Below are positions 5,142 to 46,992 of a stretch of DNA of 64,000 nt, piece after piece. Both the position numbers and the translations under genes were made by a program. Where the stretch lies: IMG/VR virus record IMGVR_UViG_3300026980_000004; one strand, given 5' to 3'. The notes beneath the pieces were generated by a model. The model ran no database searches, was not told the origin of the DNA, and saw only the letters and a program-made list of their open reading frames with translations. This DNA is from a virus (taxonomy: Duplodnaviria; Heunggongvirae; Uroviricota; Caudoviricetes). Numbering within the stretch: the first letter of the stretch is position 1; each line of letters begins with the position of its first letter.

Positions 5142-6422
5142 ATGTCATTTATACAAAAAATAGATCCAACAGTCATTTCGATTAAACTAACCAATGCTGG
5201 TAGAGAAAAATTAGCTAATGGTAGTTTTAATGTTTCCAGTTTTGCTATTGGTGATAGTGAAATTAATTATGATTTTTATAAAAGGAATGAAATAAATCCT
5301 AATAATTCGAATGTTTTAATACCATTTGAAAACATAAATGATATTAGATATAAAATAAAAAAATCATTTAATGATGAAAATTATATATATGATATTTCAC
5401 CAATTTCCTCAAAAGATATTGTATATAATGACGTGAATATGGGTTTTTTTGATGGTGATAATATCGAATTAATGAAATTCAATAGAGATAATGACAGGGT
5501 AAAAGAATCGGGTATAAAAATAGATATATCAACATTGACAACAAATACAAATATCGTAAATGTTATTCAAGATGATGATTATGTTGCAGGAACTGGTGTT
5601 GAAGTTGGTGATTATATATTAATAGGATGGACTAATCCATATACCGATTCATTTAATACAGATCAATTAAATTCAGAAGTTTATACACCATATATTTTTT
5701 ATAAGATTACTGCAATATCTGGAACAATTGGAGGAAATAATTTATCGTTGACACTAGATAGAAATGTACCAAATTTTGGTAGTGGTATAACATCGGATAC
5801 ATATTATGCATATTGTTTTATTTATCCTAAATATGATTCGATAAAAGATTATTATGGTACAGAATTTTTAAGTGATTATTGGAATTTTACCGATACTAAT
5901 TATATTGAAAATTGTTATAATCCGAACAATAAAGTTTATGTATGGAATTATACATTATTTTATCCTGAAAAATATATTGGTGTAAAGGATACTGATAAAA
6001 TACCAAATGATCTATATTCATATAAATATAAAAGTTTTTTGAATTATATATCAGCAACAAGTAAACAAGATGTGTATGGTATTATACATTATACAAATTC
6101 ATTACCAGATAATAATGTGGGTGAGGGTTTTTATGAAAATACTGCAGAATTATGGATACCAACATTGATGTGGCATAAGGGTAATACGAATAAATTGGGT
6201 GCTAAATTCGTATGTGAAGAAAATTATAATAATCTTACAGATATTGGTTTAAAATATTATAATTTGGTTGATGAAAATAATAATTATGTTGGTAAATGTT
6301 TTAGTGATTTAAAAATATTTTTAATTGAAGACCAAGAATTGGTACAAGTACTTGCATTTAAATCAAATAGAAATTGGACATTACCACAACCAGTTGTTGG
6401 TATTTCTAGTTTAGAATGTTGA
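5142..6422 (+). CDS. Baseplate/tail-collar protein, paralog of 7203..8897
   Basis: N-terminal IKLTNAGREKLANG...FAIGDSE resembles tail-collar fibre N-termini; shares motifs with 7203..8897 (DRNVPNFG/DRDLPNFG, GIIHYTN, PT.LWHK, DQEL, KSNRNWTL). Confidence 0.55.
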   Translation: MSFIQKIDPTVISIKLTNAGREKLANGSFNVSSFAIGDSEINYDFYKRNEINPNNSNVLIPFENINDIRYKIKKSFNDENYIYDISPISSKDIVYNDVNMGFFDGDNIELMKFNRDNDRVKESGIKIDISTLTTNTNIVNVIQDDDYVAGTGVEVGDYILIGWTNPYTDSFNTDQLNSEVYTPYIFYKITAISGTIGGNNLSLTLDRNVPNFGSGITSDTYYAYCFIYPKYDSIKDYYGTEFLSDYWNFTDTNYIENCYNPNNKVYVWNYTLFYPEKYIGVKDTDKIPNDLYSYKYKSFLNYISATSKQDVYGIIHYTNSLPDNNVGEGFYENTAELWIPTLMWHKGNTNKLGAKFVCEENYNNLTDIGLKYYNLVDENNNYVGKCFSDLKIFLIEDQELVQVLAFKSNRNWTLPQPVVGISSLEC

Positions 6423-42034: not shown

Positions 42035-44809
42035 ATGCCAAGATTAAAAAAGAAAATAGAATCAAATATTAAAGCAATATACCCATCATCATTAATTGCA
42101 CAAAATTTTGCCGAGGGTGATGATTCTTTTCATGGTTATGTTTTATGGGATGTTAGTGATAATAAAAATATTACACACGAAAAAAGAGAAATTAAATCCG
42201 AATATAGTTATAGAACTGTAAAAGTAAATAGATTTACAGATTTTTCGTACTTGGATTTTGAAATCGAAAACCCAACAAAATATATGAATATTAGAGTCAT
42301 TTGGAATGTATTTCCATCTGATTATAATACTGAAAATATTTCATTGGTAAATAAATATATTAAAAATACATATGGTAACACACATGTTATTACACACCCA
42401 AAAGATTTTATTGTAACAGAAGAAATCGAAATTGAAAATAAGAGTGATTTAAAACTTGAAAACATTGTTTCAAAAGATGTTCAGCAAAAGATTTTTAAAA
42501 ATTATTTAGAGGAATTAGGTTGGGGAAATGATTTTATCCAAGATATATTTAAATTGGATGATGAAATTTCAAAAAGAGTTGTTAGTGGTGATGTCGAAAA
42601 CATTATATGGAAACCAATAAAAATTCAGGGAAGAAATTTTAGATCATATGAAAATATTGATTTGGATTTTAGAAATTATATTGGTACTACTCAAATAGGT
42701 GGAAAAAATAGGGGTGGTAAATCATCTATCATTCAACTATTAATGTATGTTTTGTATGGTAAAACTATTGAGACTGAAAAAACTCAAAAAAATGGTGATA
42801 ACCGATTTATTAACAATAAACTAGATGCTGATTTTTGTAATGGATATGCTGTTATTGAAGCAAATGGTGAATATTATGGTGTTTTTAGACAAACAAATAG
42901 AAAATGGAATAGAGGTAAAACAGAAATTACTGGATCACCTAGTATTGTAAAATATTATAAATTATCATCACCAGATGAAATATATTCTGAAAATAATGAA
43001 ATATCTGAAGATAATCAAAATCTATCCGAAGAAGATAGAATAAAAACACAAAAGGTAATCAATAAAATTATTGGTGATTATGATAATTTTAACAGACTTG
43101 TTTTAACAACTGCAGACACCCTAAATAGAATTTTATCTGTAAATAAAGCTGATTTTATTGATAATCTATTGTATGATTTAGGTTTGGATATTTTCGATAA
43201 AAAACTAGATGAATTCAAACAATATAAAAATGAGTATCAAAAAAATACAGAAAAACTTGTAATCAATATCGAATCAACAGAAGAAAAAATATTAAAATAT
43301 AAGGAAGAAATTGCAGATATTGAAAATGAAATTGGTGAAATAAAAGATGTAAAAATTAAGGAACTTGAAGAATCAATATCTAAAGGAGTAGATTTTAAAA
43401 ATGATTTAATTAAAAAACTTCATAAAATAAACAAAGATATTGAGACCCTAAACCCCGATGTTATTAATCAAAATATTAATAGATTTAATGATGATTTAAC
43501 AAATAAAAAAACAAAATTAAATACAAATCTTAATAAGATTAAAACACTAAGAGATACTTATGATAAAGAAAGATTAGAAAAATTAACCAATGAAAAAGAT
43601 GATTTTAAAACATTGGTATATAAAAATAAAGATTTGATTAATGGTAAGAAAGATCAAATAAGAGAGGTACAAGATGCTAAAAGTAAATTACAAACAAAAA
43701 TATTTTTAATTGAAAAAGAAATTAAATCGTTAAAGAGTGAAAATGATAATCTTGAACATAGCAAAACTTGTCCAACATGTAATCAAACATTAAGACCAGA
43801 AGATATTGATGTTATTAAAGTTAAAATAAATAATAATAATACTCTGATTAATGAAAAACAGTTAAATATTGATCACATTAATAATAGATTGCCCGATGCA
43901 GATCGAAAAATTGATGAAATTAATAAAGAAATTAAAAAGATAAATGATGAAATCGACCAACTAAATTTAGATATGGAAAAAACACTGGAAGATATTGGTG
44001 TTTTAACCAATCATAAAAATGAGGTTGATGAACGTGATAAATTGATTCTAATCAATAATACGATTAAAACAGAAATCGAAAATACAGAATTAAAAATTGA
44101 TAATGAAAACGCTAAATTAAACGAATATAATAATTCACTTAAACAAATTGAAGAGAACAAAAAGATTAATAATAAAATTAAATTATCAGAAGAAAGATTA
44201 GCTGTTCTTAACGAAGAAAGGGATAATCAAATATTAAATATTAGTAACCATAATAATAATATTAAGAATTTAGAAAATTCTATCAAAGAATCTAAAGAGA
44301 GTATTGATAAATTTAAAAAACAAGAATATACAGATAAAATATTTAAAACTTATCAATCTTTAATACATAGAGATGGAATACCATCAAAATTACTTAAAGA
44401 ACACTCAATACCAGTTATTAATAAAACACTTGGAAAACTATTGGAAAATGTTACATTTACAGTTTGGCTGGACCCAGATGATATTACACTGAAAATGGCT
44501 GATATTAGTAAAACAGATTCAGTTATTGATTGTATTTCAGGTTCTGGAATGGAAAGAACATTTGCAGCAATCGCATTTAAGTTTTGTTTAAATGAACTCA
44601 ATATTAAATCAAGACCATCTATCATTATATTGGATGAAGTAACGGGTAAATTGGTTGACGAATCTGTTGAATTATTCTTAGATTTACTAAATGTAATTAA
44701 GAAAAAAATACAGAATATTCTAATAATCGAACATACACATGATGTACAACCAGATTATTATATTGAGGTTCAAAAAAATGAAAAAGGAATATCTAAACTA
44801 ATTAAATAA
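42035..44809 (+). CDS. sbcC: SbcD C-terminal fragment fused to SbcC/Rad50-like ATPase
   Basis: N-terminal AIYPSSLIAQNF.E...HGYVLWD (SbcD end); Walker A GKNRGGKSS, zinc hook CPTC, signature SGSGMER, Walker B IIILDE. Confidence 0.85.
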   Translation: MPRLKKKIESNIKAIYPSSLIAQNFAEGDDSFHGYVLWDVSDNKNITHEKREIKSEYSYRTVKVNRFTDFSYLDFEIENPTKYMNIRVIWNVFPSDYNTENISLVNKYIKNTYGNTHVITHPKDFIVTEEIEIENKSDLKLENIVSKDVQQKIFKNYLEELGWGNDFIQDIFKLDDEISKRVVSGDVENIIWKPIKIQGRNFRSYENIDLDFRNYIGTTQIGGKNRGGKSSIIQLLMYVLYGKTIETEKTQKNGDNRFINNKLDADFCNGYAVIEANGEYYGVFRQTNRKWNRGKTEITGSPSIVKYYKLSSPDEIYSENNEISEDNQNLSEEDRIKTQKVINKIIGDYDNFNRLVLTTADTLNRILSVNKADFIDNLLYDLGLDIFDKKLDEFKQYKNEYQKNTEKLVINIESTEEKILKYKEEIADIENEIGEIKDVKIKELEESISKGVDFKNDLIKKLHKINKDIETLNPDVINQNINRFNDDLTNKKTKLNTNLNKIKTLRDTYDKERLEKLTNEKDDFKTLVYKNKDLINGKKDQIREVQDAKSKLQTKIFLIEKEIKSLKSENDNLEHSKTCPTCNQTLRPEDIDVIKVKINNNNTLINEKQLNIDHINNRLPDADRKIDEINKEIKKINDEIDQLNLDMEKTLEDIGVLTNHKNEVDERDKLILINNTIKTEIENTELKIDNENAKLNEYNNSLKQIEENKKINNKIKLSEERLAVLNEERDNQILNISNHNNNIKNLENSIKESKESIDKFKKQEYTDKIFKTYQSLIHRDGIPSKLLKEHSIPVINKTLGKLLENVTFTVWLDPDDITLKMADISKTDSVIDCISGSGMERTFAAIAFKFCLNELNIKSRPSIIILDEVTGKLVDESVELFLDLLNVIKKKIQNILIIEHTHDVQPDYYIEVQKNEKGISKLIK

Positions 44810-44877
44810 AATTTATAAAAAATAAGAGCTAATTCATGGAAAATATATTATTGAATTTGGGTGTTAAAAGGGATGAT

Positions 44878-44939
44878 GCATAACGATGTAGCTATGCCAT
44901 CGGCTGAGGAACGAAGCTGGGGTATAGCGTGTGTTGGCT
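44878..44939 (+). repeat. attC-like site 1 (62 bp)
   Basis: GCATAAC 44878-84; arms GCTATGCC(A)TCGGCT / AGCTGGGGTATAGC; GTTGGCT 44933-39. Confidence 0.7.
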
Positions 44940-44946
44940 AAATGAA

Positions 44947-45077
44947 TGCCAACGGACGAGTATATGATTTCGGTGGCGATTGATTGCAGGACTTTTCGCA
45001 TACTGACAAACTTTCAAGACTGCACAGTGGTTTAAATTAAGCAGTATAACCCCACTGAATTATATACATTGTTATGC
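44947..45077 (+). repeat. attC-like site 2 (131 bp)
   Basis: TGCCAAC; arms 44960-76 / 45052-67 (16 bp, 2 G-T, 1 bulge); GTTATGC 45071-77. Confidence 0.75.
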
Positions 45078-45089
45078 TGCGTTAATTGT

Positions 45090-45272
45090 ATGAGTAATTT
45101 AAGACTGAATATTAGAATACTAATGTGGCATATACAGATAAGCTACAATTGGAAAATAAGTGTAACCTATAATGACTACCATAAAGGATTAAATTATGGT
45201 TGGTTTGCTGTTTATGAATATAAAAGACTATTTGAAAGAAGTAGAAATTTTGATAGGGATAATGCAGCATAA
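45090..45272 (+). CDS. Cassette gene, 60-aa hypothetical
   Basis: ATG 45090; stop TAA lies inside the GCATAAC box; flanked by GTTATGCTGC/GCAGCATAAC. Confidence 0.6.
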   Translation: MSNLRLNIRILMWHIQISYNWKISVTYNDYHKGLNYGWFAVYEYKRLFERSRNFDRDNAA

Positions 45273-45394
45273 CGGTACTCAGCTATGAATAGTGCGATTT
45301 AAAAACAAAAAATATAAAATTATGGCAAAATCAAATAAAGAATTACAGGATGAAATAGATAATAGCAGAGCATTATTTATAGCTGATGTTATGC
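45267..45394 (+). repeat. attC-like site 3 (128 bp)
   Basis: GCATAAC; arms 45279-95 / 45370-86 (17 bp, 2 G-T); GTTATGC 45388-94. Confidence 0.8.
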
Positions 45395-45537
45395 GCTGTT
45401 TGAAATCTGACCCTGATGCAAATGATGGAACTAAAAATTATAAAGAATTACCCCAATATTTGAGTGAATTAATAGATAAGGATGGGAGTTTAATGGGTGG
45501 GTTAATTATCGCAATTGAACACTATCTGGAAAAATAG
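45322..45537 (+). CDS. Cassette gene, 71-aa hypothetical starting inside the site 3 loop
   Basis: A-rich leader then ATG 45322; reads through the right arm and GTT as ..FIADV|MRC. Confidence 0.65.
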   Translation: MAKSNKELQDEIDNSRALFIADVMRCLKSDPDANDGTKNYKELPQYLSELIDKDGSLMGGLIIAIEHYLEK

Positions 45538-45538
45538 C

Positions 45539-45746
45539 GCATAACGTAGGTGGCTAAACGCTGATTTTTAACCGATTTAAAAGACGAAAACAATGAAAGA
45601 TATTAAATGTGTAAATGGATGTAAGTACTTTAATGGTGGTGAAATTAAACACCACGAAGATTGCCCACACTATCCTGAATCAATGAGTAAAATGTATGAT
45701 GACCTCAAAAGCGAGGTTAAAAATTTGCGTTTAGCTAATGTTAGGC
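45539..45746 (+). repeat. attC-like site 4 (208 bp)
   Basis: GCATAAC; arms 45551-73 / 45715-37 (23 positions, 2 G-T, 1 T-T); GTTAGGC 45740-46. Confidence 0.8.
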
Positions 45747-45844
45747 TTTCGTTGCTTAATAAGGTTCAGGAAATAGCATTTGGCGATGGTTCTGCTCAGG
45801 AGCGTATGGTAGATATAAAGGCATTATTCAGCAATGAAGTCTAA
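45593..45844 (+). CDS. Cassette gene, 83-aa hypothetical (Cys/His-rich N-terminus) starting inside the site 4 loop
   Basis: CVNGC...HHEDCPH; reads through as ..LRLANV|RLS; stop TAA inside GTCTAAC. Confidence 0.65.
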   Translation: MKDIKCVNGCKYFNGGEIKHHEDCPHYPESMSKMYDDLKSEVKNLRLANVRLSLLNKVQEIAFGDGSAQERMVDIKALFSNEV

Positions 45845-45960
45845 CGGTTTGTATATGGCACGTAGCCATTCACTAACCTAAGTAGAAGAGAAACAAATTT
45901 AATAACCGCACATAGTTTCAAAAATAGCCTAACAGCTATGTGCTATATACTTTGTTAGGC
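45839..45960 (+). repeat. attC-like site 5 (122 bp)
   Basis: GTCTAAC; arms 45851-66 / 45935-50 (16 bp, 2 G-T); GTTAGGC 45954-60. Confidence 0.8.
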
Positions 45961-45970
45961 TTAGTTGATT

Positions 45971-46192
45971 ATGGAACTTACAACAGAACAAATATTAGAG
46001 ATGAACGAAAAGCGTTTTATTTCTCATAGCACTGGAATGAAATGTGCAAAGTGTGGTAGTGATTTTAAAGTAAACAATAGGCACTTACTACCATTTGAAT
46101 TTGAGAAACTTAATGACACAATTGGTAAGGTTTGGATACCTTGTCCAAGATGCGATGAAAAGTATGATTTAGGGATATGTAGGCACAATTAA
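45971..46192 (+). CDS. Cassette gene, 73-aa zinc-ribbon protein
   Basis: CAKC...CPRC; flanked by GTTAGGCTTA/TAAGCCTAAC. Confidence 0.65.
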   Translation: MELTTEQILEMNEKRFISHSTGMKCAKCGSDFKVNNRHLLPFEFEKLNDTIGKVWIPCPRCDEKYDLGICRHN

Positions 46193-46368
46193 GCCTAACT
46201 ATTATATAGATATAATAGTTCACAACTAACTGAAAATAAAACACTTAAATCATGAAAAAGATTGATTATTACGAAATTTAAAAACAAAAATTGAAGTAAT
46301 ATGGTTATTTAAAATATTACATTAACTTTTTTCTATATTAACTATTTATATATACTAATCAAAGTATT

Positions 46369-46992
46369 ATGTCTCTAGTTAATATACAAAAAAAAGTAGG
46401 TGCAACACCTGATGATATTTTTGGTCCGAATACTGCAAATCATATTTTAAATTATTATAATTTAAATAAAATACATGGGGCGATATTTTTAGGTCAATGT
46501 TCACATGAAACAGGTAATTGGAAACATTTTGAAGAAAATTTAAATTATTCAGCAGAGAGACTTGCAAAAGTATGGCCTCATAGATATTCAGAAAATAAAG
46601 AACCAAATGAATTAGCAAAAAGATTACAAAGAAACCCAGAAATGATTGCAAATAATGTATATGCAAATAGAATGGGAAATGGTTCTGAAGAGTCTGGTGA
46701 TGGATGGAGGTATAGAGGTAGAGGTGCAATACAATTAACTGGAAAATTTAATTATAGTGAATTTTCTAGATATACAAAAGATCCTGAAATTATTGAAAAT
46801 CCAGATAAAATAATAACAGAATATATCATCGATTCTGCAATTTGGTTTTTTAATAAAAATAGATTGTGGAGTTTATGTACCGATATTAGTAATGAAACAA
46901 TAAAAAGGGTAACAAAAAAAATCAATGGTGGTTTTAATGGTCTTGATGATAGGATTGAAAAAATAAACAAATATTATAATTGGATTAAATAA
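46369..46992 (+). CDS. Endolysin, glycoside hydrolase family 19
   Basis: FLGQCSHETG, EENLNYS, GDGWRYRGRGAIQLTG..NY, VTKKINGG.NGL.DR; short N-terminal PG-binding-like segment. Confidence 0.88.
   Translation: MSLVNIQKKVGATPDDIFGPNTANHILNYYNLNKIHGAIFLGQCSHETGNWKHFEENLNYSAERLAKVWPHRYSENKEPNELAKRLQRNPEMIANNVYANRMGNGSEESGDGWRYRGRGAIQLTGKFNYSEFSRYTKDPEIIENPDKIITEYIIDSAIWFFNKNRLWSLCTDISNETIKRVTKKINGGFNGLDDRIEKINKYYNWIK

Follow-up and report, generated by a model that had tools for sequence, protein, structure and literature searches.

A probable integrase-less satellite array of integron-type cassettes with reversed gene polarity in a 266-kb phage genome

In integrons, recombination of the non-coding strand is held to orient promoterless cassettes behind a single promoter. 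Canonical attC sites carry 1.24 G:T pairs per site on the recombining strand against 0.39 on the other, together with a lower folding energy, and this recombining (bottom) strand bears extrahelical bases on the arm opposite the AAC (PMC5027507). According to Nivina et al. (2016), no reversed cassette has ever been observed in either mobile or chromosomal integrons. Here, we analyzed a stretch of 64,000 nucleotides, hereafter the window, from a virus of the class Caudoviricetes (IMG/VR record IMGVR_UViG_3300026980_000004, 265,845 bp in total), in which five hairpins and several small open reading frames (ORFs) alternate at positions 44878-46199. We interpret this locus, with a probability of about 0.7, as a satellite array devoid of an integrase, made up of five integron-type cassettes and carried by a 266-kb phage, whose unit is C-hairpin-GTTxxxx-(gene)-xxxxAA on the coding strand.

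Several described systems share part of this organization. At dif, a Xer-type recombinase devoid of the IntI insert exchanges one strand on a folded single-stranded DNA hairpin of the CTX phage, and replication resolves the product; in this system, each phage genome has a single attachment site and relies on enzymes and the dif site of the host, with neither cassettes nor arrays. In the 'inverted-integrase' integrons of the Treponema denticola type, the recombinase and cassette genes are co-directional, with the integrase upstream of the array and attC after the genes. The phage studied here shares this co-directionality, but its recombinase lies downstream of the array and its sites precede the genes. 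Small integrase-less attC clusters (CALINs) were reported in a few virulent phages, one of which infects the marine flavobacterium Polaribacter; they were found with canonical attC models and are recombined by IntI1 mainly via their bottom strands (Qi et al. 2023, PMC9892861). They resemble the present locus as attC-type clusters with no nearby integrase in lytic phage genomes, but no phage recombinase is linked to them, whereas here we see an own platform and a reversed gene polarity. The PeSL elements of T4-type phages, which combine an early promoter and a terminator, recombine by homology (Arbiol et al. 2010, PMC2839356; PMC4122927). As in the present locus, repeated stem-loops stand between small accessory ORFs in T4-like phages, with module shuffling and circular forms. 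In contrast, PeSL cassettes have no AAC/GTT cores, flank complementarity or dedicated recombinase, while here the ORFs read through the hairpins and the promoter and terminator consensus is not enriched: we counted five sigma-70-like promoter sites against 10.1 in shuffled sequences and one terminator-like site against 0.6, and did not find the promoter-plus-terminator makeup of PeSL. No description of a phage-encoded platform with reversed cassette polarity was found in searches of full-text literature.

Canonical integrons, both the mobile class 1 type and sedentary chromosomal ones such as that of Vibrio cholerae, are a further close comparison. Both systems have imperfect hairpins of 54-200 nt bounded by inverse cores (GCCTAAC/GTTAGGC, GCATAAC/GTTATGC), one strand of which has more G·T pairs and a lower folding energy, and in both the core that follows a site is complementary to the one ahead of the next. 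In both, array, insertion site and recombinase gene follow each other along the coding strand of the recombinase, on which the hairpins fold, and cassettes devoid of ORF as well as integrase-less satellite arrays occur. The differences are that here the genes lie on the recombining strand, with the site 5' of the gene and often containing its start codon, that the recombinase is a phage protein without the IntI insert, that the spacers are asymmetric, at 5-6 against 1-3 nt, with extra bases on the AAC arm, and that the carrier is a T4-like jumbo phage.

In the window, the array is flanked by an SbcC-like gene (42035-44809) on its left and an endolysin gene (46369-46992) on its right, with all five elements on the + strand (Table 1) and of the general form xxxxAAC-spacer-stem...stem-spacer-GTTxxxx. 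All copies of the heptamers GCATAAC (5/5) and GCCTAAC (4/4) in the window are confined to 44878-46199, a clustering beyond chance, and the array block is a compositional island of 34% GC between flanks of 24-28%. The cores follow the attC pattern RYYYAAC / GTTRRRY (GCATAAC, GCCAAC and GTCTAAC against GTTGGC, GTTATGC and GTTAGGC; stems of 14-21 bp), GCATAAC deviating from strict RYYY at one position. With five sites, a terminal site and the sole PF00589 gene of the record ~69 kb off, the locus falls within the definition of a CALIN (at least two attC-type sites, no integrase nearby), and we read it as an integrase-less satellite array served in trans. The left junction, an ORF remnant, may correspond to the left half of the original insertion site. 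Cassette 1 is scarcely more than a short hairpin with its flanks. The borders of the five units derived here coincide with those proposed by a first-pass annotation of the same DNA, made from the letters alone.

Table 1. Coordinates of the hairpins, cassettes and junctions of the window array, and of the whole cassettes shared between related loci (arrows mark the proposed crossover point; L numbers denote loci)
Feature	Position	Strand	Description
Hairpin E1	44878-44939 (AAC..GTT 44882-44935)	+	GCATAAC-GATGTA-stem...stem-GTGT-GTTGGC; 3 G·T pairs, one bulge; covariance model 26.6 bits on +
Hairpin E2	44947-45077 (AAC..GTT 44951-45073)	+	GCCAAC-GGACGA-GTATATGATT...AATTATATAC-ATT-GTTATGC; covariance model 82 bits on +
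Hairpin E3	45267-45394 (AAC..GTT 45271-45390)	+	17-bp stem and paired R box; ATG of the downstream gene in the loop; covariance model 90 bits
Hairpin E4	45539-45746 (AAC..GTT 45543-45742)	+	Long loop; ~20-bp stem GCTAAACGC(T)GATTTTTAACC / GGTTAAAAATT(T)GCGTTTAGC; one T·T mismatch
Hairpin E5	45839-45960 (AAC..GTT 45843-45956)	+	16-bp stem, 2 G·T pairs; covariance model 85.6 bits on + vs 2.2 on -
Cassette 1	44884-44952	+	69 nt, 51% GC, no ORF; flanks GTTGGC / GCCAAC complementary
Cassette 2	44953-45272	+	ORF 45090-45272 (60 aa), stop = TAA of GCATAAC; flanks GTTATGCTGC / GCAGCATAAC complementary, 10 nt
Cassette 3	45273-45544	+	ORF 45322-45537 (71 aa), start in E3 loop; 3' arm and GTT translated as ALFIADV
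Cassette 4	45545-45844	+	ORF 45593-45844 (83 aa), start in E4 loop; stop = TAA of GTCTAAC
Cassette 5	45845-46198	+	ORF 45971-46192 (73 aa), zinc ribbon, weak PHROG 1315 match; flanks GTTAGGCTTA / TAAGCCTAAC complementary, 10 nt
Left junction	44837-44883	+	15-codon ORF remnant ending GATGATGCATAA; its TAA stop = TAA of the first TAAC; hairpin begins directly after AAC
Right junction, attI-like site	46193-46222	+	GCCTAA↓C-TATTATATAGATATAATAGTT
Shared whole cassette	Main array 5611-5928 (locus L005) vs L034 107-424	coding-strand copy (main array)	91% identity
Shared whole cassette	L031 9699-9951 vs L039 12899-13151		96% identity
Shared whole cassette	L020 7206-7609 vs L032 1169-1572		93% identity

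The rest of the phage genome provides the context of this array. A whole-genome scan detected strong hairpin elements at two places only, the window array (+ strand) and a main array of ~27 elements on the - strand, which is the coding strand of the recombinase. This main array extends from ~genome 6740 through the record ends to 264100 and finishes ~55 nt before the start of the only PF00589 tyrosine recombinase gene (genome 262963-263766, - strand). The record closes inside the main array via a 97-nt terminal overlap (1-97 / 265749-265845), so that the order of the elements across the joint is uncertain; the overlap starts exactly at the AAC of an element, and the assembly probably branches at a cassette junction there. 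The main array ends with CCACAAC-TATTATATATAC and the window array with GCCTAAC-TATTATATAGAT. The 266-kb genome contains the 12-mer AACTATTATATA three times, and every copy closes a cassette array at its 3' end; the copy at the end of the window array is the only part of the attI-like site that the window carries. Outside the window, the genome has a site with the properties of attI, namely a position beside the integrase and variable cassettes on one side, as do 28 related loci. The third copy of the 12-mer (genome 243958, - strand) leads into a duplicate of the recombinase upstream region and of the first eight codons of the gene only. Around it (genome 243900-245400, - strand), a few GC-richer cassettes with the flanks GTTGGCAAA and TTTGCCAAC lie upstream of this attI-like site.

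The recombinase product has 267 amino acids, among which R133, K158 or K161, H217, R220, H243 and Y252 make up a catalytic set that, judged by these residues, is intact. It is nearest to XerA, XerC, XerD and IntI, and its closest solved structure is the XerC-like 4A8E (E = 1.7e-32). Against VchIntIA, the integron integrase of Vibrio cholerae (PDB 2A3V), residues 20-172 align with 19-174 and residues 210-258 with 260-308.

In both arrays, the gene flanks bear a signature of circular intermediates. The six nucleotides following GTT are complementary to the six that precede the next AAC at 5.2/6 positions in the window array and 5.4/6 in the main array, against 2.8/6 and 1.7/6 for the AAC flank of the same hairpin. 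Each gene is hence bracketed by a private inverted repeat that meets a hairpin only when the DNA is circular, which is the classical footprint of integron cassettes and is not expected from homologous recombination or from an mRNA structure. Because this signature cannot tell which hairpin belongs to which gene, relatives were compared.

A search with the recombinase retrieved 40 viral contigs, of which ~35 (62-81% identity) have co-oriented hairpins upstream of the gene, on its coding strand. About 55 nt upstream of the recombinase start, the motif xxxTAA↓C-TAT(T)ATTATATA is present in this phage and in 28 related loci; this junction is conserved from TAAC on and preceded by unrelated sequence among the loci. 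For instance, the 1,229 nt that begin at TAAC are 100% identical between L032 and L033, and the sequences upstream of it differ wholly. Three whole cassettes are shared between loci (Table 1), and all three matches begin at the AAC before the upstream hairpin and continue through hairpin and gene. The homology ends at the next AAC in L005/L034 and L031/L039, and 24 nt beyond it, in the 5' arm of the neighbouring hairpin, in L020/L032. Downstream of the cassette common to L031 and L039 come the insertion site and the recombinase gene in L031, and a different hairpin in L039. Among the relatives, no whole-cassette match starts at GTT and carries the downstream hairpin, a pattern that the first-pass annotation had named as contrary to its reading. 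Since the shared cassettes contain the upstream hairpin and not the stem and loop of the downstream one, the unit is C-hairpin-GTTxxxx-gene-xxxxAA, with borders resolved to within the common TAAC; by analogy with integrons, the cut would fall between A and C. These borders agree with the first-pass annotation, which had placed the crossover at AA↓C upstream of each hairpin and had assigned the hairpin to the gene that follows it.

Partial homologies between the arrays are more numerous. The left ends of high-scoring segment pairs cluster at AAC (66/118 in one set, 26/54 in another), and the right ends are mostly near start codons or elsewhere; in the latter set, which comprises homologies inside the arrays of relatives, AACG marks the start of 26 and a start codon the end of 12. 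As most shared segments are hairpin-plus-leader modules, only the whole-cassette matches are informative about the unit. Homologies among the L012-L039 arrays are mostly of this hairpin-plus-leader type and stop at the start codons of unrelated genes. This pattern suggests that cassettes may arise when a shared 5' module is joined to new ORFs.

The distribution of the system was also considered. In bacterial species genomes scanned with the recombinase through a peptide-pattern search of limited reach, only matches below 50% identity were obtained, bar one 2-kb contig that is probably phage, and within the same limits no arrays were seen beside these distant matches. Among cultured phages, the recombinase of Cellulophaga phage Ingeline is the nearest, at 38% identity, followed by that of Polaribacter phage Freya (36%), and no array lies upstream of the Ingeline gene. 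Among viral contigs, the window cassette protein ORF4 had no relatives and ORF5 had one weak match. An unoccupied copy of the insertion site of the window array was not found, as the relatives of the upstream SbcC-like gene were too distant (28-41% identity) and lacked synteny.

The position of the start codons also bears on the unit. Genes start inside the hairpin in 16/25 cases in the main array, in 47/114 among the relatives and in 2/4 in the window, and the reading frames of these genes continue across the 3' arm, where GTT is an in-frame valine codon. A crossover at G↓TT would therefore part them from their start codons. More generally, the start codon lies in the loop or up to 80 nt after it in 100/114 elements of the relatives. 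Start codon positions vary between 135 nt ahead of GTT and 44 nt past it. At the other end, the TAA of TAAC provides the stop codon of 10/25 main-array genes. ORFs of at least 50 aa cover 66-77% of the strand that folds against 10-12% of the opposite strand, and the relatives are alike in this respect. Because loop, 3' arm and GTT are translated, many otherwise unrelated cassette proteins share an N-terminal peptide. This peptide reads M-S/K-K-E...ALNIADV, ALFIADVMR or LRLANV (window 45322-45394 and 45593-45746; main array L005).

Several features distinguish the two strands of the hairpins. In the core stems of E1-E5, we counted 3, 2, 2, 2 and 2 G·T pairs (total 11) and no C·A mismatch on the + strand, while a looser local alignment adds three C·A, all outside the stem ends. 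The share of G·T among transition mispairs expected from base composition is 54%, against 11/11 observed in the window (p = 0.001) and a G·T:C·A ratio of 43:4 in the main array (p = 3e-8). The spacers are longer on the AAC side than on the GTT side (6/4, 6/3, 8/4, 7/4 and 5/3 for E1-E5). These pair and spacer counts reproduce those of the first-pass annotation. When the AAC/GTT pairing is enforced, a bulge of 3-5 nt appears on the AAC arm against 0-3 nt on the other arm; it is usually GG(T/C)T and adjoins AAC on the same arm. The inner single-base bulges are chiefly on the 5' arm, with eight 1x0 loops against one 0x1.

In terms of folding energy, each of the five window hairpins favours the + strand over the complementary one, by 5.3-16.1 kcal/mol with RNA parameters and 0.3-5.4 with DNA parameters, and the coding strand is the more stable one in 23-24/25 main-array elements. 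A greater or equal stability of the bottom strand, which had been proposed as a test of the strand assignment, was hence not observed. With DNA parameters, E3 folds at -12.9 on + against -7.5 on - (z = -2.4 against shuffles) and E4 at -22.5 against -18.9, while the unconstrained minimum-energy folds of E2 and E5 favour local stems without the long-range stem. With DNA parameters, the energies by themselves make a modest case. Stronger support for the structure comes from covariation, 13/14 consensus pairs showing compensatory changes among 22 aligned elements. One consensus column is G·U in 13/22 elements and, as its G sits in the non-coding 5' arm, its conservation is not explained by codon constraint. 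A covariance model run with filters off over both strands of the whole window gave four matches only, all on the + strand at 44875-45963. With its default filters, cmsearch misses all three window elements used in training, which score 82-90 bits once the filters are off. In this AT-rich DNA, default-filter negatives are hence unreliable. No known RNA family of Rfam reached threshold for the hairpins.

Taken beyond the window, we lean towards a wider reading, which we consider somewhat less secure than that of the array itself. The phage would encode an integron-type lineage with a gene polarity opposite to that of every described integron, in which an insert-less Xer-like recombinase acts on sense-strand hairpins; the site would be the 5' leader of the gene, start codon included, and the hairpin may also act in the mRNA besides giving many cassette proteins a common N-terminal peptide. 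By analogy with integrons, the coding strand, when single-stranded, would fold into the hairpin, with xxxxAAC and GTTxxxx pairing into the R box. The Xer/IntI-like tyrosine recombinase of the phage would then cut within 5'-AAC-3' on the 5' side of the hairpin. A one-strand exchange with another hairpin would excise the cassette as a circle, an exchange with the attI-like site TAA↓C-TATTATATA would insert it, and replication would resolve the junction. Crossover by this recombinase on single-stranded DNA is thus a prediction drawn from that analogy. The sequence common to the insertion site and the hairpin sites is limited to (T)AAC, which fits a single-strand exchange and not a double-strand overlap of 6-8 bp. 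As the recombining strand is the sense strand, the site would travel as the 5' leader of the gene, often with the start codon in its loop, and the gene would end at or just before the next TAAC. The cassettes would read in the same direction as their neighbours, towards the recombinase and not outward from a promoter on the attI side; an array read in this direction could not be driven by the outward-reading cassette promoter of integrons (Pc).

The first-pass annotation had described these units as the reverse of normal cassettes, which holds for the genes, since they lie on the recombining strand. It does not hold for the hairpins, whose folding strand is canonical relative to the recombinase and the insertion site. 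In other words, the polarity of the recombination sites towards the enzyme is kept and the cargo genes are flipped, and 'mirror-image attC' is a fair short name. The canonical rule that the non-coding strand recombines and that each gene precedes its own attC does not describe this system, given the coding-strand bias, the upstream hairpin in the shared cassettes and the start codons in the loops.

A number of observations weigh against these readings. The evidence on cassette borders comes from the relatives and the main array, as the window array is symmetric and cannot separate AA↓C from G↓TT. Even among the relatives, the mosaic borders are not all at AAC, 6/54 partial homologies starting at GTT, and many partial homologies are hairpin-plus-leader modules, with leader-only modules also present. 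With DNA parameters the difference between strands is small, at 1.4 kcal/mol for E2 and 0.3 kcal/mol for E5, which is equal on both strands, and only E3 (z = -2.4) and E5 (z = -2.7) beat shuffled sequences, while E1 and E2 do not. Stems with a G·U bias on the sense strand would equally suit an mRNA element. Regarding the enzyme, the recombinase has 37 residues where VchIntIA has 85 (~48 fewer); the IntI-specific insert is absent, so that the protein does not qualify as an IntI-clade integrase bearing that additional domain. It also scores below the curated cut-offs of every NCBIfam Xer/IntI model, with 157.6 bits against 265 for TIGR02249 (IntI), in two pieces, and 177.1/220 for XerA_Arch, 146.9/329.6 for XerD and 144.2/335 for XerC, and so belongs to none of these families as defined. 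Finally, extra unpaired bases on the AAC arm are the geometry of the canonical non-recombining top strand (PMC5027507). Extrahelical bases on the arm opposite the cleaved AAC were not found, the 3-5 extra nucleotides lying next to AAC on its own arm. Since the recombinase is devoid of the domain that reads extrahelical bases, the AAC-arm bulge is no argument against recombination, and for the same reason the choice of the strand must rest on other features.

The same geometry speaks for a canonical polarity, in which the non-coding strand would fold and cross over at G↓TT, each gene would own the downstream hairpin, and its start codon and leader would come from the site of the preceding cassette. 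Seen from the complement, the extra bases of the coding-strand AAC arm lie opposite the AAC, as in canonical bottom strands (PMC5027507), and the symmetry of the window array and the homologies starting at GTT are compatible with this scheme. The latter homologies end at start codons, however, and so are not whole cassettes in this scheme either. The 3/3 whole-cassette matches take the upstream and not the downstream hairpin, no hairpin separates the last gene from the site at the recombinase-proximal junction, the complement folds worse and bears the C·A mismatches, and 16/25 genes would lose their start codon. We therefore regard a canonical polarity as very unlikely. Another possibility keeps the AAC core and dispenses with folding: the recombinase would act on double-stranded DNA, as Xer does at dif or on plasmid dif modules, the hairpins being accessory or regulatory. 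The enzyme is indeed closest to XerA, XerC and XerD and has no IntI insert to read extrahelical bases. Yet the TAAC shared by insertion and hairpin sites is too short for an overlap of 6-8 bp, GTTxxxx, the partner half-site, is 50-200 nt distant in unfolded DNA, and the strand-biased wobbles and strong covariation indicate a folded single strand; Xer proteins do use folded single-stranded DNA in the case of the CTX phage. This proposal appears quite improbable, if marginally less so than a canonical polarity.

The hairpins could also be chiefly mRNA elements, with the start codon in an A-rich loop and a role in stability or processing, shuffled by homologous recombination in the manner of PeSL. 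The sense-strand G·U bias, the larger strand difference with RNA than with DNA parameters, the start codons in or shortly after the loop in 100/114 elements of the relatives and the many shared hairpin-plus-leader modules all suit such a role; moreover, the phage belongs to the T4-like kind, for which shuffling of the PeSL type with mini-circles has been documented (PMC2839356). Complementary gene flanks that differ between cassettes are not expected from homologous recombination, though, nor are sharp TAAC borders or a conserved TAAC junction beside the recombinase gene in every relative. The start codon varies in position, from 135 nt before to 44 nt after GTT, and neither an enrichment in sigma-70-like promoters or terminators nor a match to an Rfam family was observed. 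We consider mRNA elements to be an unlikely explanation in place of recombination, while an additional role of the hairpins in the mRNA alongside it is possible. Lastly, miniature transposable hairpins, such as MITEs (miniature transposable elements with inverted repeats), REP/RAYT (REP, repetitive extragenic palindrome) or IS200/IS605-like elements, could have spread alone, unlinked to the tyrosine recombinase. E5 and the main-array hairpin at genome 4003-4117 (- strand) are 87% identical with a homology limited to AAC..GTTAG, hence a hairpin-only homology across arrays, and a survey reports MITEs common to Flavobacterium phages and their hosts (PMC11602168). Strong elements occur here only in co-oriented arrays ending at an attI-like site, however, and the chain of flanks and the mobility of whole cassettes are not transposon signatures, which makes a spread of this kind extremely unlikely.

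If an integron-type lineage of reversed gene polarity is confirmed in these phages, the textbook rule of cassette orientation would not be universal for such systems, the principle of hairpin recombination would be separable from the logic of expression from a single promoter, and the IntI insert would be dispensable for hairpin recombination. Large lytic phages would own a device to swap small accessory genes. The system would also provide a test case for strand choice, with two conserved G·T pairs and an asymmetric spacer instead of extrahelical bases. In practice, tools that assume a gene followed by its attC would place the borders of these cassettes one hairpin out of register.

Two further arrangements of the cores were observed. 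At ~5610-5625 of locus L018, a CTAAC-ACTT-GTTAT junction has its AAC and GTT four bases apart with no hairpin between them, and is followed by a leader module common to three other cassettes. Hairpins of the E5 type (window 45926-45961; genome 4003-4117 and 264400-264514) contain an inner GCCTAAC immediately 5' of the 3' arm, which forms a 9-bp mini R box with GTTAGGC and provides a second possible AAC per element.

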